The notes under the pieces were generated by a model. That model was given only the letters and a program-made list of their open reading frames with translations, was not told the origin of the DNA and did no database searches. A stretch of DNA of 64,000 nucleotides, taken from NCBI GenBank assembly GCA_022800625.1, contig JAAWQR010000002.1, positions 25,596-89,595 on the forward strand. Direction: 5' to 3'. Origin of the DNA: Clostridiales bacterium (lineage in GTDB: Bacteria; Bacillota; Clostridia; Oscillospirales; CAG-272). Positions 22,949 to 57,104 of the stretch are shown piece by piece; within the stretch, counting starts at the first letter, position 1, and each line of letters begins with the position of its first letter. Both the position numbers and the translations under genes were made by a program.

Positions 22949-22976
22949 AAGAACCTCATACACTATGTTATTTGTA

Positions 22977-23005: not shown

Positions 23006-23016
23006 GAACTACAAAT

Positions 23017-23065: not shown

Positions 23066-23068
23066 GAA

Positions 23069-23197: not shown

Positions 23198-23211
23198 TTT
23201 TCAGTGTCTCC

Positions 23212-23326: not shown

Positions 23327-23370
23327 AAACACAAATTCAGTGTATTATGCTTTTATGCTTTGCACTTGAA

Positions 23371-24073: not shown

Positions 24074-24137
24074 AAAAACCACCTACAGCTTGTATCACAT
24101 ATATTGTACCATAAAAATCGACAAAATAAACATGTTA

Positions 24138-40800: not shown

Positions 40801-42264
40801 GTGGAAAAATGGACCAGAAAAGAATACGGCACATGGGATGAAGCGTTCCGCGGTCTTACACCGCGAATCCGTCAAAGCTCTGTCAGGATTGCATCATATA
40901 CACGAGAGCTGTTTGTGCAGGCGTGCGCCGACTCATTTGCCAAGGGAACGCATGACGGAAGTGCAAGGATCCGCGGTAAATATGCCGATCTTGCATATAA
41001 ATGCGGCATGTATCACCAGCTCGGAAAGGCTCTTGTGCCGCCAGAATATCAGATTTTTCAGAGCGACTTTACAGATGAAGAAAAATCTGTTTATTGGAAG
41101 TATATGACGGACGGACGGACGCTTGTCTCCATTCTTCAGGAAAGAGGCGCTGCCGCTAAAAGAAAGCGAGGCATGCCTGACGGAGAAGAAGCGCCGACTG
41201 ATAATATTACATGGCTGATGCTCCGCGAAGCGTGTGAACAGCATATGGAACGCTGGGACGGAACAGGCCTTCCCGAAGGCAGGCGCGGAGACGAAATCAG
41301 CCCTGTTGCACAGATCGTCGGACTTGCGCATGAGCTTGACAGACTTGCATCCGAAACAAAGTCAGAAAAGCCGTTTGACGAAGCGCTTGAAAAGCTGAAA
41401 GGCGAGGTCGGTGCGGCTTGGTCGCCTGCTCTTATAGATGTGCTGACTCACGCTAAGGAAGCGTGCCGCGGAGTATACAAAAAATATATTCATTATACGA
41501 TGACGCTTCCCGAAACGATACCGCTTGTTGAAAAGCGAGAGGACAGACCTATGGGACTTAAATACCGTCCTATGGTAAGCGATAAAAACGGCAGCGTATC
41601 CTATTACGAAGCGATTCCATGGTACGGCGGAATTGCCGATAATCCCGATGAAACGGAGAGCACGGAAGACGTTTCGGAACTGCTCAAAAAAAGCGAGCTT
41701 ATTTCGGATATATCTGTTTACTTCATGTATGAGGCTGCGGACGCAGTTCTGAGACTTGAAAACTGCAAGCTTGACGTCAGCGGAATTATCTTAAATGTGC
41801 CTGCGAATTTTTATTCCGAGAGCGAGCAGCTTTTCAGAATAAATCAAGTTTTTGAAGATGAAGGAATATCAAAGGACAAGCTTCTGTTTACTATTCCTGA
41901 GTCGGTTTTACTGAGTGCTGACAGAGAAACAGCTGAGAATGTCATTGAATATCTGAACGCCGGCTGCAAGTTGGTTCTTGACGGATATCACCCGGATAAG
42001 ATCAGCACAGAGCAGCTGCGTGAGCTTGGATTCAGTATGATTCGCATGTCTCCCGAGCTTAATCTTAAATCTGAAACTGCGGTTCAAATAAAATCTCTCC
42101 GTGAGAGCGGCTTTACGCTTATCGGCGGAGCTGCCGATTCGCAAAACTCGCTTGCCTGGCAGCTTGCCTGCGGAGTTGTTGCCGTCGGCGGACCTGTAGT
42201 GGGCGCGCTCGCCTGTGAAAACGAAATGATTCGCGACGGGCTTGTAAGAGAGCAGACAATATGA
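40801..42264 (+). CDS. degenerate HD-GYP-like plus degenerate EAL-like protein (candidate c-di-GMP sensor)
   Basis: MERWDGTGLPEGRRGDEISPVAQIVGLAHELD matches the HHExxDGSGYP region, but the upstream HD is HQ (YHQLGK). C-terminal YRPMV...YYEAIPW, ILNVPANF, FTIPES and VLDGYHPD follow EAL-domain spacing with catalytic residues replaced. GTG start 8 nt after AAGGAG. Confidence 0.6.
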   Translation: MEKWTRKEYGTWDEAFRGLTPRIRQSSVRIASYTRELFVQACADSFAKGTHDGSARIRGKYADLAYKCGMYHQLGKALVPPEYQIFQSDFTDEEKSVYWKYMTDGRTLVSILQERGAAAKRKRGMPDGEEAPTDNITWLMLREACEQHMERWDGTGLPEGRRGDEISPVAQIVGLAHELDRLASETKSEKPFDEALEKLKGEVGAAWSPALIDVLTHAKEACRGVYKKYIHYTMTLPETIPLVEKREDRPMGLKYRPMVSDKNGSVSYYEAIPWYGGIADNPDETESTEDVSELLKKSELISDISVYFMYEAADAVLRLENCKLDVSGIILNVPANFYSESEQLFRINQVFEDEGISKDKLLFTIPESVLLSADRETAENVIEYLNAGCKLVLDGYHPDKISTEQLRELGFSMIRMSPELNLKSETAVQIKSLRESGFTLIGGAADSQNSLAWQLACGVVAVGGPVVGALACENEMIRDGLVREQTI

Positions 42265-43343
42265 GCAGAAATATAGACGTATTTGAAAACAAACAGCGGC
42301 GTCTGTTTAAGAAAAAAAGAGCAGGTATTGTTCTGACTCGCGATGAAGTCCGCGAGATAAAAAAGGGCAGGAAAAAGCTTCGCCGTGAAATGAAAGCCCG
42401 CGGGATTCGGAGTAAGGCGGAATTTGAACTGACAGCCGGAAATCTCGGACTTTATTTTGATAAACGAAGAGGACTGCTCGGGTGGCTGAGACTTCATTGG
42501 CTCGGAACGCTTCTCGGTTCATTGTTGGCTTTTTTAACCGTTCTTTTCCTGTTCTCAATTGTCCAGCATATGCGCGGTCATTTCACAATACATTTGTCGG
42601 ACGGAATGTTTAAAGAAGGCTTTACCCTGTCGGACAATGTTGACTTTACCAATCCTACGACACAGCTTTTCGCAAATCCTGCGCAGGGCGTGCCGTGTAT
42701 ATCAATAAATCAGCTGCCGACCGATATCGATGAGATCGACGGTGAGCACAACGACCAATATTTTGCGTATACCTACTATATTCGCAACGAAGGCGAAAAC
42801 ACGGTTGATTTTGATTGGACGCTTGATCTGACGTCTGAGACTCAGAGTGTCTCGGAGGCAGTTTGGGTAATGCTTTTCTGTGACGGAGAAATGCGCTTCT
42901 TTGCAAAGCAAAACCGAGAGAGCGGTGAGAGGGAAGCAATTCCGTCTTTCGGTGACAACGGACGCGGATATACAAATCTACCGATAAAAAGTCTTGCAGA
43001 AAACAGCGATCAGTTTGAGGTTGTGAAGCAGGACGGTCAGATAACATATTGGCGCATTGTTCCCGACAAATTCGAGTCACCGCTGCGCGTCACTCATGGC
43101 AGTCAGTCAGAGGTCAATCCGATGGAGGTACACAAATTTACAGTTGTAATGTGGCTCGAAGGCGACGATATTGATACAAACGACTCTGTGATAGGCGGGC
43201 ATCTGGGTATAGAAATGAACTTCAAACTCATATCCGAAACTGAGAAAGAATTGGAAAACGGAGGAGCGGCGGCTGATGGATCGTTTAGGGCTCGTTGGAA
43301 GAGCTTCTGGAACAGTATATGGAGCAACCTGACCTCACGATAA
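42261..43343 (+). CDS. membrane-anchored paralog of the TasA-like fibre proteins (basic cytoplasmic N-tail, one TM helix)
   Basis: ATGA start/stop overlap with the upstream gene. TM LGTLLGSLLAFLTVLFLFSIV. C-terminal VVMWLEGDDIDTNDSVIGGHLGIEMNF motif shared with ORFs 45746 and 51452. Confidence 0.55.
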   Translation: MSRNIDVFENKQRRLFKKKRAGIVLTRDEVREIKKGRKKLRREMKARGIRSKAEFELTAGNLGLYFDKRRGLLGWLRLHWLGTLLGSLLAFLTVLFLFSIVQHMRGHFTIHLSDGMFKEGFTLSDNVDFTNPTTQLFANPAQGVPCISINQLPTDIDEIDGEHNDQYFAYTYYIRNEGENTVDFDWTLDLTSETQSVSEAVWVMLFCDGEMRFFAKQNRESGEREAIPSFGDNGRGYTNLPIKSLAENSDQFEVVKQDGQITYWRIVPDKFESPLRVTHGSQSEVNPMEVHKFTVVMWLEGDDIDTNDSVIGGHLGIEMNFKLISETEKELENGGAAADGSFRARWKSFWNSIWSNLTSR

Positions 43344-43541: not shown

Positions 43542-45437
43542 ATGACAAACAACGCTAAAAAGCGGGAAGTCAAGATGCCCGGCGGACTTAGACAGAAGCT
43601 TACAGCTGCAATTGCAATGCTTCTTGTTTCCGCTATTATGCTTGTTTCCGCAACCTACGCATGGTTCACGCTGTCAACAGCGCCCGAAGTCAAGGGTATT
43701 TCGACAAGCGTCGGCGCAAACGGAAGCCTTGAAATGGCGCTTCTGACAAAGACAGTCGGAGATATCAAATCAGGCGTCGGCGATTCATCAGCCGTTCAGG
43801 ATGTTAAGCTTGCAAACCGTACATGGGGTAATCTTGTGGATCTTAGTGACGAAGCATACGGTTTCAACGCTCTTACACTGAATCCTGCCCGTCTGATGTT
43901 CAACGAAGACGGTACCGCTCTTAAAGATGCAAATATGCTTCTCGGTACTGCCGACTACGGTTCAGACGGACGTGTATCTGCAATTTCTTCGGCCCGCAGC
44001 ATGATATCTGTTGCAGGTTCCTATGCCGGAGAAGGAGATTTATACGGTGTACGTGCTATCGGTGACAACTCAGCTCTCAGTCCTGAGGAAGTTGCTGTTA
44101 ACAAAGCAAAGATAACCTTCAATTCATCTCTCGAAACTGCAAAGAGCGGAGCTAAATCTGTTCTTGATATGTACGGCGAACAGCTTGCTAATATTGCAGT
44201 AAGACACGGTACTGCTGATGCAGGCACTGATACTTATACAAAGGCAGAAGTTAATGCAATCAGAGACGTTATTACAGCTCTTGAAGCTGAGGCTGCAAAT
44301 ATTGAAACCGTACTTAAGGCTGAAGCTCTTGTAAGAGCTACAGTTGTTGACGGCAGCGCCGATCATACTCTTGAGGAGCAAGTTGTAACGAATGATAAGC
44401 TTACAGCGTTAACTACAGCGATTGCAACAGCTAAGGCTGCAATTCCGGCTGCTGAAAAAGACAGTTACACATGGACTGAAATTCAGCCGGCTCTTTCGGC
44501 AATAATTGATCCCACAGGCGTTACAGTAAACGGCACAACGATATCGGATCTCAAAGATAATCTGATCGGTGAAGACGGACAAATAAATTCCGACTATGCT
44601 TTGGAAATTGCTACAAATCCTTCAGTTGAGACATCAGAGGGAATTTTGGCGTCTGTTGCAGAGTTTACCGGAAACTATAAGTCCATCGGATTTAGTCTTC
44701 CTGTTACGGCTATGGGAATGAGCGTAACTCTGAAAAATGCTACATTGGCTGCAACCACAACAGCAAATCCGGCAGTTCTCATGGGTATTGCGGCAGACAT
44801 AGTTAACCTTAAGTATGAAGGCGAAACATCAAGCGACAATGCAGTTATCTCTGATAACTACGGTTACGCTGTTGACCTTGCGTTCCGTTCAAATACTAAT
44901 ACCAATCTCCAGCTTCAGACAGACGGTGTACAACGTATTTACAACGATGCGACTGTTGTTAACCCTGACACGCAGGGCGGCGGAAGCAAAATGACATTTA
45001 CATCAACTGTTCTTACAGAGGCTCAGATGAAGGCACTCATGGGCGCTATCCGCGTTGTATTCACTGTTCCCGGAGGCACTGAAGTATACGGTGTAGCTAC
45101 TCTTGATCTTGCAGCTCCTGCTGAAGGAACCGAGCCTACATACAGCTTTACAACAACAGGCAGCACTGTTACAGGTACAGCTAACCTTGTAATGAGCAAG
45201 TATACAGTAGATGCAGACGGAAAGATTGTAGTTGCTGGCAAGGCTGATAATGATACTATTACAACCCTTAATCAGGGCGAGGCTAAAGGCGTTACAGCTA
45301 TTGTTTACCTTGACGGTGATATAGTTGATAACTCAATGGTTGCTAATGCGTCCAACTCTATGGCAGGCAGTCTCAACCTTCAGTTCAGCAGCAGCGAACA
45401 GTTGACTCCTATGAATTATACACCTCTTAAAAAATAA
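43542..45437 (+). CDS. TasA/camelysin-like SipW-cognate secreted protein, candidate major fibre subunit (631 aa)
   Basis: N-terminus ...LLVSAIMLVSATYAWFTLSTAPEVKGISTSVGANGSLEMAL. Cys-free mature part rich in A/T/G/S/N. C-terminal IVYLDGDIVDNSMVANASNSMAGSLNLQF. GGGGA RBS. Strong hairpin downstream. Confidence 0.6.
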   Translation: MTNNAKKREVKMPGGLRQKLTAAIAMLLVSAIMLVSATYAWFTLSTAPEVKGISTSVGANGSLEMALLTKTVGDIKSGVGDSSAVQDVKLANRTWGNLVDLSDEAYGFNALTLNPARLMFNEDGTALKDANMLLGTADYGSDGRVSAISSARSMISVAGSYAGEGDLYGVRAIGDNSALSPEEVAVNKAKITFNSSLETAKSGAKSVLDMYGEQLANIAVRHGTADAGTDTYTKAEVNAIRDVITALEAEAANIETVLKAEALVRATVVDGSADHTLEEQVVTNDKLTALTTAIATAKAAIPAAEKDSYTWTEIQPALSAIIDPTGVTVNGTTISDLKDNLIGEDGQINSDYALEIATNPSVETSEGILASVAEFTGNYKSIGFSLPVTAMGMSVTLKNATLAATTTANPAVLMGIAADIVNLKYEGETSSDNAVISDNYGYAVDLAFRSNTNTNLQLQTDGVQRIYNDATVVNPDTQGGGSKMTFTSTVLTEAQMKALMGAIRVVFTVPGGTEVYGVATLDLAAPAEGTEPTYSFTTTGSTVTGTANLVMSKYTVDADGKIVVAGKADNDTITTLNQGEAKGVTAIVYLDGDIVDNSMVANASNSMAGSLNLQFSSSEQLTPMNYTPLKK

Positions 45438-45452: not shown

Positions 45453-45478
45453 CGCCGAGACGGTTTTCCGTCTCGGCG
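45453..45478 (+). terminator. 11-bp GC-rich hairpin after the candidate major subunit gene (no adjacent U-tract)
   Basis: cgccgagacgg-tttt-ccgtctcggcg. A 300-bp spacer follows before the next gene. Confidence 0.4.
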
Positions 45479-45745
45479 TGGGGACGGTTTTCCGTTTCCC
45501 TCGGAAAATTTCCGCAGATAAAATCCCATGGAACTCTTTCTGTGGAGACCATTCCGCGGAAACCTTTGAAGAACTGTATTTTCGGAGCGGGAATGAGGCC
45601 TCGAAAACGGCGAATTATCGCAGCAATTTTTTAAGGGACGGAATTTCGGTACTATCAATTCCGCCCTTTATGAAAGGGTTGCGGGCACGGCTTATGGGCG
45701 GTGCCTATTCCCCTTTACAGACTATCCTATGAAAGGATGGAGTAA

Positions 45746-46735
45746 TTGAACATAATAACGGCAGATAAAAAACAAAGCCGCCGTACTTTTCTTTATCTTT
45801 GGATACTTATTGCTCTGCTTGCTCTGCTTGTCTGCGCTACATACACGTGGTTTTCTCTGAGCACGCGTCCGCGTGTCAGCAGTATGGAGATGTATATTTC
45901 CTCAGGCGCGGGACTTGAACTTGCAAAAACTTATGACGCTCCTGACAGCGAATGGGGGCAGGAGATAGACGGAGGCTCCATTATCGGTGAAAATGTATCG
46001 CTGAAGCCTGCCACATGGTCGGAGTCGAAACAAAAGCTGATAGCAGTAAATTATGGTACTGACGGCAGAATCACCGATGTGTCATCTGAGCTTGAAGACA
46101 CGGCGGACGCAAACCGTCCCGACGGATATTATGCTCTCGGAACATTCTATGCAAGGACGGATCAAAGCTGTAAGGTTTCCCTTGCGGAAGCGGTTGCGGT
46201 AAACGGAGGTGAAAATGCTTCCGGCACTTATGTTATAGGCACGCCTGTATGGAACATTGAGACGATACTTCACGACGACGGCGGCAGCGGTGCGGAAAGC
46301 GCGGTAAGATTCGGCTTTAAGCTAACACAGATAAATCCTGCGACAGGCGAAGATATATCGGATTCGGTTATGTTTATATACGAACCGAACAGCGATAAGC
46401 ATACAGGCGGTGAAACAGGTTATATTCCCACGCCGAGCATCGACGGCACTGATACGCTCTCTCCGAGACTGATAACACAAAGCGCGTCGCTCTGGACGGA
46501 CACATATCCTGTGCAGAGGGAAGTTATCTTACATACTCCCGGCAAATTTGATTCAACCCCGATGCTTTTTTCTGTGAAAGCCGGTGAGATATATAAAATA
46601 CAGCTTTATATATGGCTTGAGGGGCAGGACGCGGACTGTACGAACGATATAAGGGATGCAATGATCTTAGCAAATATCGGATTCAAAACAGATTACAGCG
46701 GTCAGACAGGTCTTGAAGAGATTCCGCAGAACTGA
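45746..46735 (+). CDS. TasA-like SipW-cognate secreted protein (329 aa)
   Basis: LLALLVCATYTWFSLSTRPRVSSMEMYISSGAGLELA N-terminus. C-terminal LYIWLEGQDADCTNDIRDAMILANIGF. TTG start after GGATGGAG. Confidence 0.6.
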   Translation: MNIITADKKQSRRTFLYLWILIALLALLVCATYTWFSLSTRPRVSSMEMYISSGAGLELAKTYDAPDSEWGQEIDGGSIIGENVSLKPATWSESKQKLIAVNYGTDGRITDVSSELEDTADANRPDGYYALGTFYARTDQSCKVSLAEAVAVNGGENASGTYVIGTPVWNIETILHDDGGSGAESAVRFGFKLTQINPATGEDISDSVMFIYEPNSDKHTGGETGYIPTPSIDGTDTLSPRLITQSASLWTDTYPVQREVILHTPGKFDSTPMLFSVKAGEIYKIQLYIWLEGQDADCTNDIRDAMILANIGFKTDYSGQTGLEEIPQN

Positions 46736-46795
46736 AAACGTAAAATTGAAAGTAAAAATTAAGAAAATATAAAAATGATAGAGAGGAAGTTTATT

Positions 46796-47917
46796 ATGAG
46801 GAAAAGTCAGGTTGATATTCCCGTAGCTGAAGGCTCAGAAGCTGTTTTGACGAAGCCGAAAAAAGGGAAAAAAATTGCGAGCATCGTTATAAATGTAGTT
46901 TTAATAATTGCTATTGTGCTTGCAGCCATGTGTACTTATGTTTCATATGTCAGCACATCGGGAAGCGGGGTTCCCAGTATCTTCGGCGCACGTATCTTTT
47001 CAATTCAGACAAAATCAATGTATCCTACGCTTAATTCCGGAGACTTGATTTTTGATGTCAGAGTTAAAGATGCGTCGGAACTTCAGGTTGATGATATTAT
47101 TACGTACTGGACTGTAATTGACGGAGAGCGTGTACTCAATACGCATAGAATCAACGAAATATATGACGGCGGAGGATACCGTATTTTTCAAACAAAAGGT
47201 GATGCTAACACTCTGGAGGACTCACTGACTGTTCATGAGTCGGAGATCGTCGGCCGTTATACCGGTCGCAAGATCAACGGACTCGGAAAGGTTTTCGACT
47301 ATTTACAGACAAGCACGGGATTTATGATAGTTGTGGTAGTTCCCGTAGCAATATTCTTCCTTTTTCACCTGATTCAGTTCTTCCGTGTTCTGTTTGAGTA
47401 TCAGAATGTTAAGAATAAACTTCTTTATGAGCAGGAGCGCGGAAAGACGGAAGACTTGGTTGCAGATGAAAAGCGTGCGAACGAGGAAGCAAAGCAGAAG
47501 GAGAGAGAACGTCTTGAGGCTGAGCTTCGCGAACAGCTTAAAGAAGAAATACTTAAATCAGGTGCGCTTGATTTAAGCGGGGAAACAAAGACGATTTCTG
47601 AAAAAGATAGTAAAGCAGACGATGCAGAAGCTAAAGTAAAGGCGGAAGCTGAAGAACGCGCAAAGCTTGAAGTCGAGCTTCGCGAAAAGATTATGGCTGA
47701 AGAAGCTGCAAAGGCAGAGGCTGCTGCAAAGGCAAAAGCCGAAGAAGAAGCTAAGGCTGAAGAACGCGCAAGGCTTGAAGCCGAGCTTCGTGAAAAGATC
47801 AAAGCGGAGATGGCAGCAGAAGCTGCGTCAGCCGCAAAGACTGAAGCTGTTTCCGATGACTCAGAATCAGCCGCAGAAAACGGCGAGTTTCAGTCAGTCG
47901 AGACGGACAAAGAATAA
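46796..47917 (+). CDS. sipW: SipW-type (S26B, ER/archaeal-type) signal peptidase I with a cytoplasmic E/A/K-rich tail of about 170 aa
   Basis: SIQTKSMYPTLNSGDLIF (catalytic Ser), NTHRINEI (His), TKGDANTLED. A second TM FMIVVVVPVAIFFLFHLIQFF, then three ER..LE.ELRE repeats. Confidence 0.8.
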   Translation: MRKSQVDIPVAEGSEAVLTKPKKGKKIASIVINVVLIIAIVLAAMCTYVSYVSTSGSGVPSIFGARIFSIQTKSMYPTLNSGDLIFDVRVKDASELQVDDIITYWTVIDGERVLNTHRINEIYDGGGYRIFQTKGDANTLEDSLTVHESEIVGRYTGRKINGLGKVFDYLQTSTGFMIVVVVPVAIFFLFHLIQFFRVLFEYQNVKNKLLYEQERGKTEDLVADEKRANEEAKQKERERLEAELREQLKEEILKSGALDLSGETKTISEKDSKADDAEAKVKAEAEERAKLEVELREKIMAEEAAKAEAAAKAKAEEEAKAEERARLEAELREKIKAEMAAEAASAAKTEAVSDDSESAAENGEFQSVETDKE

Positions 47918-47954: not shown

Positions 47955-49529
47955 ATGGAGGAAAACATGGATCACTTTTTAAAGTATTTCTTTCAGGATA
48001 TAGGCAGGGTGTTCCGTGCTTTTCTTGAGATTCTCAGCTCGTTTTTCAACTTTTTGAATTATCTGCTCAATTTTCCGATGCGTCTTGAGCTTATCCGTGA
48101 ATATAACGGTGAATTTTCCGTCATGGAATGGGTGATGCTTGTTATTACCGAGATCGTATTGATCGCGCTGATTGTGTTGCTTATTTTAGGACTTTTGAGA
48201 CTGTTCAGAAAATTGTTCAGATTCAGGGTTCCGGTCAAAAAGTATGATGAACTTACACGTCAGGTGAGAAATCTGCAAAGAGATCTGCTTCGCGCAAACT
48301 ACGAAAAGGATCGGCTTCTTAATATGAAAGTCGCTGAGCTTGGCGGAAATCCCGAACTGCCCGAGGAAGAGGGCGAGGACGGTGATAAGCCGGATCTTCC
48401 CGAGAGTAACAGAAATACCTTTGAGTCTCCGTGCATAGCGCCGGGGGACAGCAGATTCTTCAGGCTGACAACGGTTGATAATTTCTACAAAACCGATTAT
48501 ATTCCGCCGATATATGATTCTGACTTTGATCTTGCGGGTATTTGTGAGCAGTTCAGGCTGTTTGCAGCTTCAGAACTCGGACTTTACTATGATCTTGATA
48601 TGATGCGTTACTTTATTGCATCGATGGGCGCTGCGCGGATCATCATTTTGCAGGGTATTTCAGGTACGGGTAAAACATCGCTTCCGTATGCGTTCGGTAA
48701 ATTTGTCGGAAAGGATACTACTGTCGTATCCGTGCAGCCTGCATGGCGTGAACGTACTGAGCTTTACGGTTATTACAATGAATTTACCAAAAAATACTCG
48801 GAAACAGACTTTTTGCGTGCGATTTATGAGGCTAATTATTACAGAGATCCGCATATCGTTATTCTTGATGAGATGAATATTGCTCGAGTCGAATATTATT
48901 TTGCCGAAATGCTTTCCATTCTTGAAATGCCGAGGCAGGATGAGTGGAAGGTAAATATCGTGTCTTCTCTGTGGGCTAACGATCCATGCCTTATAAACGA
49001 CGGCGCTGTACAGATACCGAACAATGTCTGGTTTGTAGGAACGATCAATAACGACGACTCAACCTTTGCTGTATCCGACAAGGTGTATGACCGTGCTATT
49101 CCGATTGACCTAGACGCAAGAGCTGAAGCGTTTGAGTGTGAACACACTTCAGCTGTCAGCATTTCAACGGATCGCTTGGCAAAGCTGTTTGAAAAGGCAA
49201 AAGAAGAGTATACTGTATCCGATGAAATGTGGAAAAAGCTTGATGAGCTTGACGCTTATCTTGTTAAAAATTTCAAACTCACTTTCGGTAACCGTATAAA
49301 TAAACAGATCGGCGACTTTATTCCGTGCCTTATCGCCTGCGGCGGTACTGAGATACAGGGCGCTGACTTTATGGTGGCAAAAAAAGTGCTCAGAAAATTT
49401 GAGTCTCTTTCTCTCGGTTTTATGAAAGATGAGTTGACAAAATTCAACGCATATCTTGATAAGCTGTTCGGTAAAAACAGTATGCCGATATGTAAGGAAT
49501 ACATAGATTATCTAAAGAAAAACAACTAA
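47955..49529 (+). CDS. membrane-tethered McrB-like AAA+ NTPase
   Basis: N-terminal TM WVMLVITEIVLIALIVLLILGLL and a coiled coil. Then LQGISGTGKTSLPYAFGKF (Walker A), SVQPAWRERTELYGYYN, HIVILDEMNIARVEYYFAEMLSILE (Walker B) and WFVGTINNDDSTFAVSDKVYDRA, as in the McrB/AAA_5 family. The start may be ATG 47967. Confidence 0.7.
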   Translation: MEENMDHFLKYFFQDIGRVFRAFLEILSSFFNFLNYLLNFPMRLELIREYNGEFSVMEWVMLVITEIVLIALIVLLILGLLRLFRKLFRFRVPVKKYDELTRQVRNLQRDLLRANYEKDRLLNMKVAELGGNPELPEEEGEDGDKPDLPESNRNTFESPCIAPGDSRFFRLTTVDNFYKTDYIPPIYDSDFDLAGICEQFRLFAASELGLYYDLDMMRYFIASMGAARIIILQGISGTGKTSLPYAFGKFVGKDTTVVSVQPAWRERTELYGYYNEFTKKYSETDFLRAIYEANYYRDPHIVILDEMNIARVEYYFAEMLSILEMPRQDEWKVNIVSSLWANDPCLINDGAVQIPNNVWFVGTINNDDSTFAVSDKVYDRAIPIDLDARAEAFECEHTSAVSISTDRLAKLFEKAKEEYTVSDEMWKKLDELDAYLVKNFKLTFGNRINKQIGDFIPCLIACGGTEIQGADFMVAKKVLRKFESLSLGFMKDELTKFNAYLDKLFGKNSMPICKEYIDYLKKNN

Positions 49530-49550
49530 CAGTCGAAGGGAGGAGTCATA

Positions 49551-51386
49551 ATGGCTGATATGGAAATAAAAACTAAAGAGGCAGATGACGAGCAGAGTGA
49601 TTCTTCTCTTATCGATCCTATTTATAAAAGCTTTACGGGAAGTGTGATGAGGGCACTTGACAGCACGGAATTTTATGAGTTTTTCATGGATGCGATGTCA
49701 AGGAGCAATCACCGGATACAGTTTTCAAATAGACGTGAGATTAAGAGCGTTGATCCGACATGGGTTGAAGCTATCGAAGAAGCGCTCGACAGCGTGCAGG
49801 GAGTTATAAATTCTCCGCGCAGTATAATTAAAGAAGACGAGCTTATAGTCAATATTGCAAACGCGAAAATGACAGGTCCCGATGTTGTCCGCCATATTGC
49901 ACAGCATGCGTCTCTTGTTGAATCTTACGATGAAGCTACGGGAGACGTTCACCCGAACAAAGTAATGCAGAAATATCGGGACGAATCAAATGATTTGTAC
50001 GAAAACAGGGTTGTATATACAACGCTTGAGAGAGCTTATCATTTTGTAAAGATAAGACATGACGCGCTGTTCGCAGTTATGAATGATGAATTCGGCGCGA
50101 AACTGAAAGTAAATTCCGATATGAGCACTGCGACGGAACAAATCAAATTTGATATGTTCGTTCACATTAAAGATATTGACAGTATGATGGCAACCGATGA
50201 AAAGAACCGCAAAATATTTGAGAGGATTTCAAGAATATATCGCCTGCTCAGTATGTTTATGAATACTCCTTTTGCGGAGCAGATGAAAAGATTGCCGAAA
50301 GTGCACGGAGCAATTTCAAAGACGAATGTTCTTAAAAAGAATCCGAACTACCGTACAGTTGTAAAGCTTTATGAATTTCTTAAATCTTATGACGATATTG
50401 GTTATAATATTAAGGTGGTAGAGCAGAATCCTGTAGTCAGCGAAGAATTCCGGCGGGATATTTTCCATAATATTATGTTTAATTATATCGTGCTGAAGGG
50501 ATATCTCGAAAGCGAGCGAGACAGGCAGACCGTTACTGCTGCAAGGGAAAAGAAGCGTAAGCTAAAGCCGAAATTTATAAAGCAGATAATTGAAGAACTA
50601 ACGGAAAATTACGACCTGCCTGACGTTGAGGTTCGCAAAGTTCTGATTGAAGAGCTGACGCGGGAGCAGCTTATGCAGGAGGAAGAAGCCGAGCGATTGC
50701 GACTTGTTGAAGAAGCGGAAGCACGCCGCCGCGAGGAAGATGAAAGAGCACGCCTTGAGAGAGAGGCGGAGGAAGAACGAATTCGCCTTGAAAGAGAAGC
50801 TGAGGAGGAGAGAATCCGTCAGGAAGAGGCAGCTAAGGAAGAACTGAGACTTCAGGCTGAAAAGGCGAAGCTTGCGGAAGAGCGCCGCCGTGCTAATCTT
50901 TTCAGACGTGAGATTGAATATTTCAGAAATCACATATATAATCAGATGGAAGAGCGGCGCGAAACTGCCGCTGAAATTATAGCTGAGACAGAAGACTTTG
51001 CGGATGCAGTACTTATCCTTGAAGAAACAGAGCGCTTAAAGAGAGAAGAACTTGAGCGTGAGCGAACTCGCCGCCGTGAAGAGGAAGAACGTATAAAACG
51101 CAAAGCTGAGCTTGAAGCAGAGGCTGCGCGGAAGAAAGCTGAGGAACGGCTGGCAAAACTGAGGCTTGCAAAGGAAGAGGAAGAAGCACGCCTTGAAAGA
51201 GAGCGGCAGGAGCAAAGAGAATCTGAAAAGCAGAGATGCCGCGAACTTCTCGTTGACTATGTCAGGGAATTGCGGGACTTTTCAGAAAAACTTAATGACA
51301 GAATGGCAGATCGTGAGCGTCAGCGTGCCGAAACAGAGGCAAGAGAGCTTCAGCGTAAGCTGGCGCGTGACAGACGCGGGGCTTAA
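49551..51386 (+). CDS. McrC-N-terminal/DUF2357-like protein fused to an ER/K-rich helical tail of about 250 aa; no nuclease motif seen
   Basis: Sits 21 nt after the AAA+ gene. DLYENRVVYTTLERAY resembles the ENR motif of McrC-like partners (weak call). Residues from about 365 to 611 are E/R/K/A-rich (ERARLEREAEEERIRLEREAEEERIRQEE...). Confidence 0.45.
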   Translation: MADMEIKTKEADDEQSDSSLIDPIYKSFTGSVMRALDSTEFYEFFMDAMSRSNHRIQFSNRREIKSVDPTWVEAIEEALDSVQGVINSPRSIIKEDELIVNIANAKMTGPDVVRHIAQHASLVESYDEATGDVHPNKVMQKYRDESNDLYENRVVYTTLERAYHFVKIRHDALFAVMNDEFGAKLKVNSDMSTATEQIKFDMFVHIKDIDSMMATDEKNRKIFERISRIYRLLSMFMNTPFAEQMKRLPKVHGAISKTNVLKKNPNYRTVVKLYEFLKSYDDIGYNIKVVEQNPVVSEEFRRDIFHNIMFNYIVLKGYLESERDRQTVTAAREKKRKLKPKFIKQIIEELTENYDLPDVEVRKVLIEELTREQLMQEEEAERLRLVEEAEARRREEDERARLEREAEEERIRLEREAEEERIRQEEAAKEELRLQAEKAKLAEERRRANLFRREIEYFRNHIYNQMEERRETAAEIIAETEDFADAVLILEETERLKREELERERTRRREEEERIKRKAELEAEAARKKAEERLAKLRLAKEEEEARLERERQEQRESEKQRCRELLVDYVRELRDFSEKLNDRMADRERQRAETEARELQRKLARDRRGA

Positions 51387-51451: not shown

Positions 51452-52723
51452 ATGTTAAAGCATTCAACAAAGCTTATATTTGCATTTATTCTGTTAATCG
51501 TTGCCTTTACTATGATAGTTGCAAGCACATACGCATGGCTTAATATTTCAACAAATCCTGCGGCTGACGGTATCAAGGTTGCTGTGGCGGGCGGAAACAC
51601 GATTTTGGTAGCGCCTGATATTACATCGAACGAATACGGAGAAGTTTGCCACTTTCCCGGTGAGTTTTCCGAGCGGCTTGATTTTGAGAGCAACGTCAAT
51701 TATGATTATTTGAAGAATCTGTCAGGCTTGACTCCGGTATCTACGGCTGACGGTATTCACTGGTTTTACCCTGTATATAACGGTCTTACGGGACATACTG
51801 ATACAGGGCGGATCGGCGGATATGCTGAGGATACGGATATGCTTCACGCGAATCTTACGGAAAGCAGTGAAGTGTCTGCGGCGGAGGCTCATTATGCTTT
51901 TCTTGATTTTTGGGCAGTAGCCCCGGCGGCTGAATATACGCTGAGAGTGTCCACTGTTCCGGGAAATTCAAATACATATGTGTTGAGCGTGCCCAAGCCG
52001 GTTGAGGCGGAAAACGGCGGATTTGAGCTTGATTCGGGGAACGCCGTCACGGAGGCTTGTCTCAGAGTCGGATTTTTGACAAATAATACGGTGCTCGGAA
52101 CACCGTCAATGCTGAGTTATACTCAGAGCGAGAGATACTCTGACAGATATCGTTCCCTGCGAGGAGAATATGAAAATATTTCGACAAGCGGTGAAGGGCA
52201 GTTTAAATTTACGATTTTCGAACCAAATGCAGATCTTCACCCGACAGATGAATTGTTAAACGGCGCTTATATTACGACCGAGCCGATAGTGTCTCAGGAC
52301 GGAAGCGTTGCCGATATAAGAGACAGAGTTACAGTTCAGCGGCACAGCAGTTGGAACAGAACTTTGCACCAGAGCTTTGCAGCTGTCGGACAAGGTATAG
52401 ATTCAATTGACGGCGCGTTGAATTTATTTAAAAATGATTTTGAAGGCAGGCTTTCAGGGTACGCGGAGTCGGGAAGCTTTGTGTCAAGCACGCGAGGTTT
52501 GTATGACGCAGCGGATATGACGGGCGGCACAGTAGCTTCTGACGTGCTGCAAAAAGCTGCATCTGGCGGATCGGCTGAGGATATATCAATAGTAAAGCTT
52601 GAAAAAAATGTTCCGCAGAGAATACGAATGTTTGTATGGCTTGAGGGACAGGATGCCGACTGTGTGAACAGCGCGGCGGACGCCGGTATTTCAATAAATA
52701 TTGAGTTTGCCGGAGGCAATTGA
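51452..52723 (+). CDS. TasA-like SipW-cognate secreted protein (423 aa)
   Basis: LLIVAFTMIVASTYAWLNISTNPAADGIKVAVAGGN N-terminus. C-terminal RMFVWLEGQDADCVNSAADAGISINIEF. Confidence 0.6.
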   Translation: MLKHSTKLIFAFILLIVAFTMIVASTYAWLNISTNPAADGIKVAVAGGNTILVAPDITSNEYGEVCHFPGEFSERLDFESNVNYDYLKNLSGLTPVSTADGIHWFYPVYNGLTGHTDTGRIGGYAEDTDMLHANLTESSEVSAAEAHYAFLDFWAVAPAAEYTLRVSTVPGNSNTYVLSVPKPVEAENGGFELDSGNAVTEACLRVGFLTNNTVLGTPSMLSYTQSERYSDRYRSLRGEYENISTSGEGQFKFTIFEPNADLHPTDELLNGAYITTEPIVSQDGSVADIRDRVTVQRHSSWNRTLHQSFAAVGQGIDSIDGALNLFKNDFEGRLSGYAESGSFVSSTRGLYDAADMTGGTVASDVLQKAASGGSAEDISIVKLEKNVPQRIRMFVWLEGQDADCVNSAADAGISINIEFAGGN

Positions 52724-53501
52724 TCAGAGGTACGATTACACTGTGAGGAAAAGTAAAAAAGCGGGAAAGATAATTTCCGGATGCATAAATGTAATTCTCG
52801 GAATTGTGCTGGTCTTGTGTATCGGAATTACGGCTCAGGTGCTTACAAGAGGATACGCAAGCTGCTTCGGATTCAGTATGTTCAGGGTAGTTACAGGGAG
52901 CATGGAACCGACGCTTCATATAGGAACGGTTCTTGTTTCCCGTGATGTTGATATAAATACTGTACAGAAGGACGATATCATATGCTTCAAATCTCTTGAC
53001 TCTGCGATGCGCGGACAGTCTGTGACTCACCGCGTTGTATCAGTCATGAAAGACGGCAGCGGAGAAATATTGCTTGAAACAAGAGGAGATGCAAACAGTT
53101 CTGCCGACGGCAGTCTTGTCAGAGAATCGAATTTTATCGGTAAGGTGATATGGTATTCAAAGGGTGAAAATGTGGGGACGGTAATTTTGGGAATCCTTTC
53201 AAACCGAATCGGCTTTTTAGCCTGTGTGCTTTTCCCCTGTCTGCTTTGTGCAGGGATAGTAATGAGCCATTGCGTCCGTAATATTAAGCGTGAGATGGAT
53301 GAAGCTTTGCGTCAGCTTGAAAAGCTTGAAAACGAACAACAGGGCGATGGGGAGACTCAGTCGCTGTCTGTATACGACGTATTTACGCCTGAAGAAATTG
53401 AAGCCATTCGAGAGCAGGTTTTAGAGGAATTGATGATACAGGCAAAGCCAGAGAGGGAATATGAGGATATTGAAACGGAATCAGAAGGAAAAACAGAATA
53501 A
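52701..53501 (+). CDS. sipW: second SipW-type signal peptidase I
   Basis: FRVVTGSMEPTLHIGTVLV, VTHRVVSV, TRGDANSSADG, a second TM and a short acidic tail. The start codon is uncertain (TTG 52701 or GTG 52743). Confidence 0.75.
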   Translation: MSLPEAIDQRYDYTVRKSKKAGKIISGCINVILGIVLVLCIGITAQVLTRGYASCFGFSMFRVVTGSMEPTLHIGTVLVSRDVDINTVQKDDIICFKSLDSAMRGQSVTHRVVSVMKDGSGEILLETRGDANSSADGSLVRESNFIGKVIWYSKGENVGTVILGILSNRIGFLACVLFPCLLCAGIVMSHCVRNIKREMDEALRQLEKLENEQQGDGETQSLSVYDVFTPEEIEAIREQVLEELMIQAKPEREYEDIETESEGKTE

Positions 53502-55374
53502 TGAACTGAATTCATTCCGAAAAAGAATATACCTGAAGCTTGCAATGGCAATATCCCTCGGAGTTTTGATAGTGGCTCTAATATTTGCTGTAAGCATCGC
53601 ATGGTATACCAATGTAGTGCAGACAAGCGGACTGAGCTTTGAGGCGTCTGTTTGGGGATTTAAAGGAAATGTGGAGATTCAGGATGAAAGCATTATAGGT
53701 GCGCGTCCCGGAAAAAACGGCACTGTCGGTATGACTTTTGAAAATTCGGGAGATGAGATTGTTTATGCAGGCGTTGAAGTGAGCAAAGAGCTTATGAGCC
53801 GCGATCTACAAAAACGTATATATTTTTATATTGATTCTTCAAAGGGAATCAATGAAGAAACTGTTGAAAAAGTTTATCTCGGCGGAAGCGATAATTATTC
53901 TTATTTGCTGATGCCTAAGGATACATTATCTTTGACTGATGAAGTACATGACAATGCTCCCGTAAAATGGGAGTGGGTGTACGATGTTTTGGGTTATTAC
54001 GTTAAAGGCACGGTTACTGAGGGAGATGACGGAAAATTCAATCTTTCATCAGATGCCGAATATATAATGCCTGTAAAATATGACTATGACAAGGCTACAT
54101 TTGACGATGACGGATTTTTAGAAACCGTTGACGGAGAAAAAACGTCGGCGGAATTTATAGCTGAGATTTCCTCAAAAGACGGATATAAGGGAACGGTTGA
54201 CACGAACGCGGCACGCGGAAATTATTATGCAGTTGATGTTGAGGAGAACACGGGCATTTGGCTTTGTCTGCTTACGAAGCCTGAGATAGAATATGAGACT
54301 GTTATTGATACGGCATTAGGAAGTAAAAATCCCGATGAGGAGCTTTCAAAATTTACAGCACGTCTTACCGTGACAGCTGTAAACGGAGATTTGGTTCAGA
54401 ACAATATCGGTACTGCAGAAGATTTGAAAGAGGCGCTGTCGGCGGGAGACGAGTATATAAAGCTGACAAATTCAGTTACTCTTGACAGTTATATTGAGCT
54501 TCCGAGAGGAAAATCATCAGTTCTTGATCTTAACGGGAATGTGCTTACGGCGTCATATGTTGCAATGGTGACATGGGAAGGCTCTTCTCTTACTGTTGTA
54601 AACGGCGATATAGAGTGTATAGGGGAAAAAGTGCCGGCATTTCAGATCGTAGGAAGCAAACTTGAATTGGTGAATGTCGGTGTTAAATCCAAGTGGCAAG
54701 GTTTGCTTATTGCAGATTATGTCGGATCGGGAGCTACATCTGAGGTAAGATTGTCCGGGTGCAAAATTGACGCTGAATATTGTGCACTTACACTTTGCGG
54801 AAACGGAACGCTTTCTGAGCAGAAAACTCATGTTTATATTAAGGACAGCGAAATCACAAGTTCCAATTTAGCGATAAGCGGTAGCGGAACGGTTACGGAA
54901 AACGGACAATGGGGTACCGATGTCTATATTTTGAACAGCAAAGTTAACGGTGGTGCGGCAGCGATATATCAACCGCAGCAAAAAAGCTCTCTAACAGTTT
55001 CGGGAAGTGACATTACGGGAGGCGTAGGAATTGCCGTAAAGGGCGGAGATATATTGATAAAAGGCGGCAGTATTGTAAAGGGAACTGATGAAAAAATGCC
55101 TGCGGACTTTACATCAGGCGGATTTACACAGACAGGAGACGGACTTTACATCGAAACAAATTATGACTGGGATCGCAGCGTTCAAATCGACGGAGGAAGC
55201 AGAATAATCAGTGAAAAATCCGAGGCAATCGAAGTTTATAAGGCAGACGACGCGAGAACCTCACTTTCTGTTCGGGAAGGTTTTTACAGCTCAGATGTTT
55301 CAAGTCTGATCGATGTAACTCAATATTCCTGCGCCCTCGGTGAAGATGGTTTTTATGAAGTAGTTAAAAAATAA
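53461..55374 (+). CDS. SipW-cognate protein with C-terminal parallel-beta-helix-like domain (637 aa)
   Basis: LIVALIFAVSIAWYTNVVQTSGLSFEASVWG N-terminus. The C-terminal half has G-rich turn repeats and SSVLDLNGNVLTA, similar to YIDLNGHNLDGN in the 2524-aa protein. Overlaps the sipW-2 3' end by 41 nt. Confidence 0.55.
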   Translation: MRILKRNQKEKQNNELNSFRKRIYLKLAMAISLGVLIVALIFAVSIAWYTNVVQTSGLSFEASVWGFKGNVEIQDESIIGARPGKNGTVGMTFENSGDEIVYAGVEVSKELMSRDLQKRIYFYIDSSKGINEETVEKVYLGGSDNYSYLLMPKDTLSLTDEVHDNAPVKWEWVYDVLGYYVKGTVTEGDDGKFNLSSDAEYIMPVKYDYDKATFDDDGFLETVDGEKTSAEFIAEISSKDGYKGTVDTNAARGNYYAVDVEENTGIWLCLLTKPEIEYETVIDTALGSKNPDEELSKFTARLTVTAVNGDLVQNNIGTAEDLKEALSAGDEYIKLTNSVTLDSYIELPRGKSSVLDLNGNVLTASYVAMVTWEGSSLTVVNGDIECIGEKVPAFQIVGSKLELVNVGVKSKWQGLLIADYVGSGATSEVRLSGCKIDAEYCALTLCGNGTLSEQKTHVYIKDSEITSSNLAISGSGTVTENGQWGTDVYILNSKVNGGAAAIYQPQQKSSLTVSGSDITGGVGIAVKGGDILIKGGSIVKGTDEKMPADFTSGGFTQTGDGLYIETNYDWDRSVQIDGGSRIISEKSEAIEVYKADDARTSLSVREGFYSSDVSSLIDVTQYSCALGEDGFYEVVKK

Positions 55375-55436: not shown

Positions 55437-56021
55437 ATGATAAAAAATAATAAGTTTTTGTACGCTGCGCTGCGCCCTATGATAATAATTACAAGCTTTT
55501 TGATATGCGCGGTTCTGATTGTGGGTATTACACTCAGCAGATATGAAACAACAATAAAAAAAAGTGTAAATTTCCGCTCAGAAGAGATGGGAATGCTTGA
55601 TATCAAATCAGACAAAGGATGGACAGTAGCGGATGGTACTTTGAGTATGGATTTTGAGGTTACAAATTCTGCATGTAGTCCGGACGGTGTTGAATTTGTT
55701 CTGTATTTAGCCGCATCGCCTGCGAGCGAGGCTGAATCAGCGTCGGTTATTCTTATTATCGGAGAGACGGAATATACAGCTGTCTCTGAGGAGATTGATC
55801 CTGAGAGCAGCTTGTACCGTGCGTTTGGGTATGGATACGTATACCGATTTTACAGCAGCAGTGAAGAAAAATTACAGCAGATGTTTGAGCTTAATAAAAA
55901 ATCAGAAGAAAATGAAGAAATATTGACTTCTGAAAAAATGACTGTAAAAATAAGCGGAAAAACAGGAGATAAAGAAATAGATTCAGTCGGACTCATAAAG
56001 CTTTATGCAGTTCTTGTCTGA
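55437..56021 (+). CDS. small SipW-cognate-like secreted protein (194 aa), candidate minor subunit
   Basis: IIITSFLICAVLIVGITLSRYETTIKKSVNF N-terminus. GGGGGA RBS. Confidence 0.45.
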   Translation: MIKNNKFLYAALRPMIIITSFLICAVLIVGITLSRYETTIKKSVNFRSEEMGMLDIKSDKGWTVADGTLSMDFEVTNSACSPDGVEFVLYLAASPASEAESASVILIIGETEYTAVSEEIDPESSLYRAFGYGYVYRFYSSSEEKLQQMFELNKKSEENEEILTSEKMTVKISGKTGDKEIDSVGLIKLYAVLV

Positions 56022-56060: not shown

Positions 56061-57104
56061 TTGAAAAGAGAAAAAATAAGGATAGGTCTGATACTCGGCT
56101 GCATGTCGGCTTTGTTGATATGCGGAAGTCTTGCCGTTGGACAGACGAGATCCAGATATGTTTCATCGGCAAGCGCGCCGTTCGGGTATATAATTACTGC
56201 TGATTCCGCAGAAACGATAGGCGATATCATTATAAAGGAAGAACAGACGGCAAGTGAGGACGTGACAAAAGAAAACTCTGATACCGTGAATGACAGCCAT
56301 GAAACTATAGCTGTGACAGGAAGCGAAGAATCGGATATACCGAAAACCGACGAAGAGAGCGGTAATACTTCTGAACCGGTTGAACCAAAAATTACAGACC
56401 CGACTTTGATTCCCGAATTTATGACAGACTTTTTCGGCGACGGTCCGCTGGCGTTAAAGCTTGATAAATCTCGCGGAGCACTAAAACTTAAATTTATGAG
56501 CGGGGGCGAAGTTGCGAAGCCCTTAACAGACGTCAGATACAGTATTGACCGAGGAAAAACATGGTACAAACTTGAGAACATTTCCGAATTTACATTAAAA
56601 GATATGAGTACGGACGGTTATATTATTTTTGACTTCAATGCGACAGGTGAAATATCAGAAAACGTAATTCGGATTTATGCCGAGGACGGAAGCGGAAATA
56701 TGTGCGAGATCGAGGCAGAAAAGAAAGACGGCTTGTGCATTGAATATGACGCGAATCTTCCATGGCTTATAGATGCGTCGGGTTCAGGCACGGCGGATAA
56801 GACAGTTACGGGATATAATATATCAAACTGTGAAATGACAAAAAAACTTGAATATATGGAAAAGACAGACAGCGGATACGGATTTAAAACAGTCGACGGC
56901 GAAGCTTTAAAAGGACTTATTAAATCTGAAGTTTCAACAGACGGAGAAGCATTCAGAGACACATTTAATGTGACAGACCTGGAAAGCGGACAAACTGCAG
57001 TTGTACCGCCCGGTCAGTACCGAATGACATACACATGGAATTTCGGTGATATTACTGTGTACGAAACGGTGATTCCGTTTTTTATAAATTATTCGATGAA
57101 ATAA
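56061..57104 (+). CDS. secreted protein (347 aa) with SRY-type N-terminus, candidate minor subunit
   Basis: GLILGCMSALLICGSLAVGQTRSRYVSSASAPFG. TTG start after GGAGGGGAG. Confidence 0.45.
   Translation: MKREKIRIGLILGCMSALLICGSLAVGQTRSRYVSSASAPFGYIITADSAETIGDIIIKEEQTASEDVTKENSDTVNDSHETIAVTGSEESDIPKTDEESGNTSEPVEPKITDPTLIPEFMTDFFGDGPLALKLDKSRGALKLKFMSGGEVAKPLTDVRYSIDRGKTWYKLENISEFTLKDMSTDGYIIFDFNATGEISENVIRIYAEDGSGNMCEIEAEKKDGLCIEYDANLPWLIDASGSGTADKTVTGYNISNCEMTKKLEYMEKTDSGYGFKTVDGEALKGLIKSEVSTDGEAFRDTFNVTDLESGQTAVVPPGQYRMTYTWNFGDITVYETVIPFFINYSMK

Follow-up and report, generated by a model that had tools for sequence, protein, structure and literature searches.

A putative CoCoPALM GTPase pair encoded in a conserved SipW-type secreted-protein gene cluster of gut and rumen Clostridia

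The window analysed here is a 64,000-nucleotide (nt) stretch of DNA from a Clostridiales bacterium (GenBank assembly GCA_022800625.1, contig JAAWQR010000002.1, positions 25,596 to 89,595), and the follow-up was centred on two adjacent open reading frames (ORFs), ORF1 (47955-49529) and ORF2 (49551-51386), which encode a McrB-like AAA+ GTPase with a predicted membrane anchor and a McrC-like partner. Judged by its sequence features, the pair very likely belongs to CoCoPALM, a class of McrB-like GTPase systems named in 2024 (Bell et al., eLife 2024, PMC11090510), and it is a core component of a gene cluster that also encodes SipW-type signal peptidases and secreted proteins. The domain content of the two proteins, their lack of detectable nuclease and DNA-binding modules, the predicted anchor and the fixed linkage to peptidase and secreted-protein genes are directly supported. 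The initial annotation of this DNA described the locus correctly, but the locus belongs to the class named in 2024, and what had been proposed as a new functional context was an arrangement already described under that name. The two genes are as follows.

47967 to 49529, + strand: McrB-like AAA+ GTPase (ORF1), very likely the McrB homologue of a CoCoPALM; the ORF opens at 47955 and the probable start is 47967
49551 to 51386, + strand: McrC-like partner (ORF2), with a DUF2357-type N-domain at amino acids (aa) ~20-345, then an E/R/K-rich helix at aa 359-610

Both ORFs were found on the + strand where they had first been placed, with translations of 524 and 611 aa, and all of the motifs originally quoted are present in them (GISGTGKTS, SVQPAWRERTELYGYYN, VILDEMNIARVEYYFAEMLSILE, VGTINNDDSTFAVSDKVYDRA and DLYENRVVYTTLERAY). 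The Pfam family AAA_5 matches ORF1 above its gathering score (E 3.7e-5, aa 230-380), and the Escherichia coli McrB chains 6hz4 and 6ut6 align to aa 227-382 (E 2.8e-4) across the Walker A motif GISGTGKT, the Walker B motif ILDEMN and the signature segment, which reads GTINNDDSTFAV in ORF1 and GLMNTADRSLAV in McrB. The NCBIfam McrB model gives a weak match, and the PADLOC model PDC-M26A matches ORF1 far more strongly than McrB aligns to it (E 1e-42). Among 82 ORF1 homologues, Walker A is GISGTGKT in 81 and NNDDST is unchanged in every one, and the Walker B core DEMN is present in all 71 homologues that the search pattern matched. Because these motifs are near-invariant, the comparison indicates that ORF1 is an active NTPase under strong constraint, and the alignments place its NTPase motifs under strong purifying selection. 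The shortened NxD form of the NxxD signature is described as usually followed by D or E (PMC11090510, in its account of the NxD branch), and the ORF1 signature I-N-N-D-D-S fits NxD plus a second D. An ungapped alignment to E. coli MNTADRS pairs ORF1 D368 with the NxxD aspartate, the distance to the next [FL]AV being the same in both, and N-N-D-D is readable either as NxD plus D or as NxxD, the McrB alignment requiring no gap.

The true start of ORF1 is probably the ATG at 47967 (Met5) rather than 47955, because a Shine-Dalgarno sequence GGAGG (47957-47961) lies 6 nt before that ATG and within the first four 'codons' of the ORF, because ORF1 homologues start MDNFL, and because the product recorded by gene callers has 520 aa. 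With this start the gap to the upstream peptidase gene is 49 nt; the gaps of 37, 21 and 65 nt reported earlier around and within the pair are correct for the ORFs as then delimited. The protein is laid out as a hydrophobic N-terminal helix (aa ~5-45), a transmembrane (TM) helix (aa 60-78, hydropathy 3.24), a basic juxtamembrane stretch (RLFRKLFRFRVPVKK), a helical stalk (~85-130), an acidic linker, the AAA+ domain (GISGTGKTS, ILDEMN, INNDDS) and a C-terminal lid. The basic stretch is followed by the conserved helical segment RDLLRANYEKDKLL, and the conserved helix of the stalk is QRDLLRANYEKDRLL. Because of the basic stretch, the positive-inside rule places the part of ORF1 beyond the TM helix in the cytoplasm, whereas the coiled coil of FtsB is extracytoplasmic. 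The N-terminal TM helix was found in 78 of 78 full-length homologues, and Pfam scans matched no DNA-binding family in the region before the AAA+ domain. The earlier description of ORF1, a TM helix and a coiled coil instead of a DNA-binding domain, stands as a membrane anchor with a helical stalk, except that the protein does not start with the TM helix, which is preceded by a conserved hydrophobic N-terminal segment of ~55 aa. Pfam DivIC matched two of five homologues tested, weakly (E 0.15), and did not match the window protein; a profile search of Protein Data Bank (PDB) sequences with the ORF1 N-terminal stalk did not find FtsB or DivIC and gave chance-level matches only.

The segment ahead of the TM helix (aa 5-58, window 47967-48130) is more conserved than the TM helix itself and contains invariant F, N and L positions, e.g. 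F31, F33, N35, L37, N39 and F40. This moderately hydrophobic segment may be a second membrane-embedded helix that acts as a specific interaction surface.

ORF2 proved McrC/DUF2357-like at its N-terminus, as first proposed. DUF2357, the Pfam family of the McrC N-terminal domain, matches aa 40-173 above its gathering score (E 1.4e-5) and matches 27 of the 43 ORF2 family members that were scanned (families kept at E <= 0.1; best E 5e-11), and Lachnospiraceae homologues carry the NCBI name 'DUF2357 domain-containing protein'. The motifs YENR and PR..I.E are invariant, the invariant columns include Y150, N152, R153, P89, R90, E95, E180 and E196, and no D...(D/E)xK triad is found among them. The conserved unit is the first ~345 residues, of which aa ~20-345 match the N-termini of 1,288 clusters formed at 50% identity, and the tails beyond the conserved N-domain in these clusters range from ~60 to 800 residues. 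Given these ~1,300 clusters and thousands of ORF1 homologues, the pair is far beyond chance.

An AlphaFold model of ORF2 built with the 43-sequence alignment (mean predicted local distance difference test score, pLDDT, 70) has helices and beta-hairpins to aa ~320 and a single helix at 359-610, and a model of the N-domain alone has the same secondary structure (pLDDT 73, predicted template modelling score 0.54). Residues 210-355 are modelled as helices with one lone strand, and nothing similar to the PD-(D/E)xK core (alpha-beta-beta-beta-alpha-beta) follows the DUF2357 region in these models. No PD-(D/E)xK, HEPN or other nuclease family was matched in the 43 family members at the same threshold. 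By family scan and modelled secondary structure, ORF2 is without a detectable nuclease domain, in agreement with the initial annotation. The tail consists of E, R and K at 55% of its positions, and its heptad periodicity is not above that of shuffled controls (z 0.5), which also holds for the tail of the first SipW-type peptidase (SipW1, copy 1 below). The ORF2 tail may form one charged helix and no true coiled coil, and 'single-helix-like' was a fair description of this one predicted helix of ~250 residues. A profile search of PDB sequences with the ORF2 family gave chance-level matches only, and no PADLOC model matches ORF2 at E <= 1.

The distribution of the pair was followed in a scan of one genome per species, which returned at least 580 stretches encoding an ORF1-like GTPase. 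The best 80 of these, from different species-level genomes and 44-72% identical to ORF1, were compared by matching all window proteins with their ORFs. Carriers among them are Oscillospiraceae, Ruminococcus, Lachnospiraceae, Acutalibacteraceae and a few Bacilli-like metagenome-assembled genomes (MAGs), most from gut or rumen samples, and they include the cultured strain Lachnospiraceae bacterium 10-1. Full-length ORF1 homologues run to thousands, and identity is 69% or more throughout the best 120 of the matches listed. In the best 80 loci the next gene after the GTPase gene is the McrC-like one as far as the sequence continues, the exceptions being two loci that stop inside the GTPase gene and loci L028 and L057, which gave no McrC-like match. 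Co-occurrence with sipW loci in other genomes, which had been named as a point to check, was found, a SipW-type gene being adjacent in 75 of the 80 loci; four of the other five are broken off on that side. Homologues of two further window proteins, p360 and p329, recur in these loci, and an HD-GYP protein is conserved on the 5' side of the cluster, as a short, HD-GYP-only variant in Lachnospiraceae. The compact Lachnospiraceae version of the cluster consists of HD-GYP, p360, p329, the GTPase, the McrC-like protein (~440 aa), SipW and three small proteins with the signal motif. Metagenome contigs show the gene order found in the 80 loci. Because synteny is conserved over 80 loci of different species, the alternative first raised, insertion of a small defence island into the operon, is rejected.

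Ranked by median identity among close loci, the GTPase is the most conserved protein of the locus (67%), ahead of SipW1 (62%), the McrC-like protein (57%), p360 and p329 (46-48%) and the other secreted proteins (34-38%). Such a ranking would be expected if the GTPase were a core part of a machine whose surface parts vary. The SipW-type motif occurs across the loci in 168 same-strand ORFs versus 7 opposite-strand ORFs. Some genomes carry more than one such system, since loci L066 and L070 are two GTPase/McrC-like/SipW modules on different contigs of one Faecousia MAG (JAZMZW01).

In the window, every gene between 40.8 and 63.4 kilobases (kb) lies on the + strand; neighbouring genes overlap or are separated by short gaps, and the ribosome-binding sites are good. 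Besides the pair, the following features were assigned.

40801 to 42264, + strand: HD_5 (HD-GYP-type) plus EAL protein (Pfam), a cyclic di-GMP (c-di-GMP) phosphodiesterase or sensor, at the 5' side of the cluster
42261 to 43343, + strand: membrane protein p360, with a basic N-terminal region of ~80 aa, a TM helix at aa 83-101 and an outer domain
43542 to 45437, + strand: secreted 631-aa protein p631, with motif ATYAWF and an N-terminal module of ~130 aa common with the p329 family
45468 to 45487, + strand: terminator-like hairpin, directly after the p631 gene
45746 to 46735, + strand: secreted protein p329, a conserved core gene, with motif ATYTWF, an EPN motif and C-terminal WLEGQDxDCxN
46775 to 47917, + strand: SipW-type (archaeal/ER-type) signal peptidase I, copy 1, TIGR02228 83.8 bits, two TM helices
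51452 to 52723, + strand: p423, a paralogue of the p329 family, with motif STYAWL and C-terminal WLEGQDADC
52701 to 53501, + strand: SipW-type signal peptidase I, copy 2, TIGR02228 78.5 bits, overlapping both neighbours, the upstream gene at its end and the downstream gene at its start
53461 to 55374, + strand: p637, downstream gene
55437 to 56021, + strand: p194, downstream gene
56061 to 57104, + strand: p347, downstream gene
57145 to 62628, + strand: 1827-aa protein, with signal motif ATFAWV

Both peptidase copies score above the TIGR02228 cutoff of 51.85 bits, and the Bacillus SipW equivalog model matches them at E 7e-29 and 8e-22, in both cases below its own cutoff. The Ser, His and Asp motifs (SMYP/SMEP, THR, GDAN) are visible by eye in both. 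After the second TM helix, copy 1 carries an E/K/A/R-rich tail of ~180 aa and copy 2 a charged tail of ~85 aa, which would lie in the cytoplasm. Tails of at least 40 aa at this position were found in 93 of 119 SipW-type homologues, with Lachnospiraceae-type copies having 8-20 aa, and we know of no such charged tail in Bacillus SipW. A specific pairing of the peptidase tail with the ORF2 helix is at most a possibility and is not supported, as BLASTP gave only compositional resemblance (E 3.2) and the tail lengths over 64 loci are weakly correlated (Spearman 0.20, p 0.11).

In p329, p423, p631 and the 1827-aa protein, the N-terminal hydrophobic segment is closed by the motif A/S-T/S-Y/F-A/T-W-F/L/V, which resembles SipW-dependent signal peptides. 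By hhalign, p423 is related to the p329 family over its full length, as a paralogue (probability 99.7, E 2.6e-26), and the N-terminal ~130 residues of p631 match the same family (probability 97.5, E 5.8e-12). The membrane protein p360 has no SipW-type motif, and its C-terminal WLEGDDIDTND has only WLEGxDxD in common with the p329 family; its basic N-terminal region would be cytoplasmic, and it is a candidate membrane anchor or base. The proteins p637, p194, p347 and the 1827-aa protein are conserved in Oscillospiraceae-type loci and are presumed to be further fibre or adhesin components. The labels 'TasA-like' and 'fibre subunit' that had been given to neighbouring genes went back to the signal-peptide motif only and have no family match behind them, and searches of the secreted proteins against Pfam, NCBIfam and PDB sequences gave no match to TasA/camelysin (Peptidase_M73).

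A terminator scan found strong terminator-like hairpins on the + strand of the cluster only after 40612 and at 45468-45487; from the latter to ~57 kb only weak terminator-like matches were found (5-7 pairs, 3 G-C). Because no strong terminator-like site lies between 45.5 and 57 kb, transcription probably runs as a single unit through the genes from 45746 to at least 57 kb, the GTPase pair included. The operon membership put forward initially is supported by an operon-like layout, with a common strand, short gaps or overlaps and strong ribosome-binding sites. A hairpin after the major pilin gene within a same-strand cluster is a common arrangement; because the hairpin at 45468 directly follows its gene, p631 may by analogy be an abundant or major subunit.

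No nuclease family was matched in any ORF between 31.8 and 63.4 kb, and the sole HD-superfamily protein there is the HD-GYP (HD_5) protein fused to EAL. By eye its motifs are non-canonical (QHMERWDGTGLP for HHExxDGxGYP, EAI for EAL), and the protein may sense rather than degrade c-di-GMP; the short Lachnospiraceae HD-GYP counterpart has the canonical HHERFDGKGYP. Downstream of the 1827-aa gene, a 223-aa protein (62709-63380) matches prolipoprotein diacylglyceryl transferase (Pfam LGT, E 6e-24, covering the C-terminal two-thirds of the model), and homologues stand at the same position in loci L005, L008 and L031; it would be an Lgt paralogue dedicated to this locus. Upstream, a 2524-aa protein (31799-39373) has an ordinary Sec-type signal peptide without the SipW-type motif, and its C-terminus shows by eye paired dockerin-like calcium-binding repeats (GDTNCNGMTDAGD ... 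DINGQSSELTGSVDTGD) that are not called by Pfam; a Dockerin_1 protein occupies the equivalent position in locus L001.

The G+C content is ~0.28-0.35 in most of window positions 1-32000 and 0.42-0.48 across the CoCoPALM locus with its proposed fibre genes (32000-64000). A tyrosine recombinase gene (Phage_integrase, E 5e-24) lies directly upstream of the locus at 30129-30980 and a large serine recombinase at 14022-15701, and in Lachnospiraceae bacterium 10-1 (L052, 1563-3146) the locus is likewise preceded by a serine recombinase. The locus of ~32 kb may lie in or beside horizontally acquired DNA in this genome. On the - strand at 20898-24082, in the low-G+C flank, a LytTR response regulator and a GHKL histidine kinase stand beside a small multi-TM protein (23486-24082); this group looks like an Agr-type quorum-sensing module unrelated to the CoCoPALM pair. 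At 26-30 kb on the minus strand, two ORFs of 524 and 612 aa were considered as a second copy of the pair, but they encode an MBOAT acyltransferase and an FkbH-like protein, so the match in size is a coincidence.

The most likely function, proposed with moderate confidence, is that the pair serves as a cytoplasmic, membrane-tethered, GTP-driven module, for energy or as a checkpoint, in a platform that assembles a SipW-dependent surface fibre. ORF1 would be held at the cytoplasmic face of the membrane by its TM helix and short helical stalk. Solved relatives of the McrB family form hexamers, and ORF1 would form a ring, as McrBC structures suggest; the DUF2357 domain of ORF2 would insert in this ring and switch on the GTPase. 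In the McrBC account given by Bell et al., GTP hydrolysis by the McrB ring is low until the N-terminal (DUF2357) domain of McrC plugs into it and stimulates the reaction (PMC11090510). Hydrolysis could then be coupled to the processing, release or polymerisation of secreted subunits through membrane partners, namely the conserved N-terminal helices of ORF1, the two-TM peptidases and p360, and the complex would not cut nucleic acid. From these comparisons we infer that ORF1 forms a ring, that ORF2 activates it, that the pair is linked to fibre assembly and that a fibre exists at all. That the pair acts in fibre assembly as an energy-using machine is a possibility rated just short of even. More tentative still is the suggestion that it is the GTP-driven engine of an unrecognised class of Gram-positive filaments, with SipW-processed subunits of the p329 and p631 families and p360 as anchor. 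At the sequence level the proposed subunits resemble neither sortase pilins, type IV pilins nor TasA, and such a system would be widespread, with at least 580 matching stretches, taken from one genome per species, in gut and rumen Clostridia.

Several observations weigh against a role in fibre assembly. For no CoCoPALM member has a fibre been seen or an experiment been reported. To our knowledge, TasA-type donor-strand fibres assemble without an NTPase or an energy source, and there is no evident need for a motor. Searches of Pfam, NCBIfam and PDB sequences found no family for p329, p423, p631, p637 or their homologues, and no known pilin, TasA or adhesin family is matched by the secreted neighbours. 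Foldseek searches of the PDB with the full-length and N-domain models of ORF2 gave no match better than E 0.1, McrC included; because of this the link from ORF2 to McrC rests on the DUF2357 profile and the gene position, not on the fold, and the result neither confirms a McrC fold nor reveals a hidden nuclease. Locus L051 (9974-21638) has complete flanks and carries the pair without an adjacent peptidase gene. The remaining core genes are present in L051, as are three proteins with the SipW-type signal motif, and because its downstream proteins retain this motif its peptidase must be encoded elsewhere or replaced. Finally, the family descends from defence systems, and the closest profile match is the PADLOC defence candidate PDC-M26A.

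The alternative that survives best, although it is on the whole unlikely, is a regulatory GTPase switch, in which the ring and its McrC-like activator act as a timer or checkpoint that gates SipW activity or subunit release without mechanical work and is linked to c-di-GMP through the HD-GYP/EAL protein. The energy-free assembly of TasA-like donor-strand fibres, which is established knowledge, would suit it, as would the HD-GYP (plus EAL) gene conserved at the head of the cluster, also in its Lachnospiraceae-type variant. The low GTPase activity of McrB before McrC stimulation, described for the McrBC systems in Bell et al. (PMC11090510), likewise favours a switch. Against this, the HD-GYP/EAL motifs of the window are degenerate by eye and the protein may only sense c-di-GMP, Pfam detected no c-di-GMP-binding domain such as PilZ in the pair, and sequence data do not separate a switch from a motor.

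A role in defence or abortive infection, retained from ancestral McrBC-like modules, is improbable. Here the membrane-tethered GTPase would sense phage at the envelope and block fibre export or arrest the cell, and phages that use the fibre as receptor, for example, would explain its siting beside fibre genes. ORF1 is of the McrB lineage, whose characterised members are restriction enzymes, and the sister clade CoCoNuT is predicted to be defensive in the account of it given there (PMC11090510); the PDC-M26A match points the same way. However, neither the pair nor the conserved core yielded a nuclease, HEPN domain or other effector, ORF2 matches no PADLOC model, and no gene of the locus evolves more slowly than that of the GTPase. 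Over 80 species the gene order is fixed and identities group by taxon name, in contrast to the patchy, island-like distribution typical of defence genes, and no relatives were found in 2.9 million viral contigs, a weak negative that covered two peptide patterns only. Very improbable is an envelope or cell-division complex with an FtsB-like anchor that is merely co-located with surface-protein genes: in their passage on the class, Bell et al. call the N-terminal fusion FtsB-homologous on the basis of HHpred (PMC11090510) and weak DivIC matches were obtained, but the DivIC/FtsB similarity is not significant by HMMER, the conserved neighbourhood has no division genes, and the charge distribution puts stalk and GTPase in the cytoplasm.

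If the proposed role in a surface-fibre assembly platform is correct, a motor that arose for cutting foreign DNA has lost the parts that read and cut DNA and has been turned into a membrane machine that serves a structure on the cell surface, which would be a clear case of a restriction-enzyme motor exapted for organelle assembly. The structure would belong to bacteria that are among the most abundant and the least cultivated of gut and rumen (Oscillospiraceae, Ruminococcus, Lachnospiraceae). It would bring an NTP-dependent route into the range of SipW/TasA-type fibres, which are thought to self-assemble, and would offer a handle on the adhesion or biofilm structures of the carriers. The cultured carrier Lachnospiraceae bacterium 10-1 makes the role directly testable. 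The class itself was already known from the 2024 paper, as a short note without mechanism or experiment in the part devoted to it (PMC11090510). Added here are the set of conserved core genes, a correction of the start codon, the evidence for nuclease absence, the ranking of gene conservation and secreted partners that by sequence stand outside known families.

The nearest functional analogues among appendage systems are PilB, FlaI and TadA of the type IV pilus, archaellum and Tad systems, which combine a hexameric cytoplasmic membrane NTPase with a prepilin peptidase and multiple subunits. The likeness is one of function only, since those NTPases have the RecA/secretion-ATPase fold rather than the AAA+ McrB fold, their peptidase is of a different class, the window signal peptides are cleaved after and not before the hydrophobic segment, and the window cluster has no PilC-type platform protein. 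The tapA-sipW-tasA operon of Bacillus subtilis and the sipW-bsaA operon of Clostridium perfringens have in common with the window cluster a dedicated SipW-type peptidase encoded with secreted proteins, whose cognate signal-peptide motif has an aromatic-rich A-x-[FW] region at its end. These operons contain no NTPase, unlike the window cluster, whose peptidases moreover have long charged C-terminal tails and whose secreted proteins have no detectable sequence similarity to TasA/camelysin or BsaA.

With canonical McrBC (E. coli; 6hz4, 6ut6) the window pair has in common an AAA+ core alignable over ~155 residues and a partner with the McrC N-terminal domain encoded directly downstream. It differs in that ORF1 has a membrane anchor and no N-terminal DNA-binding domain, in that ORF2 has a charged helix and no PD-(D/E)xK nuclease, and in being fixed in a secretion/fibre cluster rather than a restriction locus; membership in canonical McrBC is ruled out by the missing DNA-binding domain and nuclease. 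CoCoNuT (CnuB/CnuC) and PDC-M26 are of the same McrB-like branch and have helical N-terminal fusions, and PDC-M26A matches ORF1. In the treatment of CoCoNuTs by Bell et al., a system that lacks the McrC nuclease always has a HEPN or another nuclease as a partner (PMC11090510). No tandem nuclease is detectable at the window locus, which rules out CoCoNuT membership, and CoCoNuT GTPases are not described as membrane-anchored, unlike ORF1. A complete PADLOC PDC-M26 system is ruled out by the lack of a PADLOC match to ORF2.

CoCoPALM is introduced as 'another large clade' in the NxD branch of McrB-like GTPases, in one paragraph and a supplementary figure, with its analysis deferred to a 'separate, forthcoming publication' (PMC11090510). 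As presented there, the GTPase is preceded by a fused domain with an FtsB-like TM helix and coiled coil, coiled coils are usual in the McrB homologue as well as in the McrC homologue, and the systems are linked to signal peptidases (PMC11090510). In the literature the name was found only in that paper and its preprint, with no follow-up under this or related terms. The conserved core (the p360 and p329 families, HD-GYP), the SipW-type motif, the absence of a nuclease and the peptidase tails are not among the features mentioned in its text on CoCoPALM. Nothing in the window pair contradicts membership. The window signature can be read as N-x-D followed by a second D or as NxxD. Four of the six features of the class are well supported: the McrB-like GTPase domain, its N-terminal TM helix with a helical stalk, the adjacent McrC (DUF2357) homologue with a long helical extension, and the association with signal peptidases, in the form of two SipW-type genes that flank the pair.

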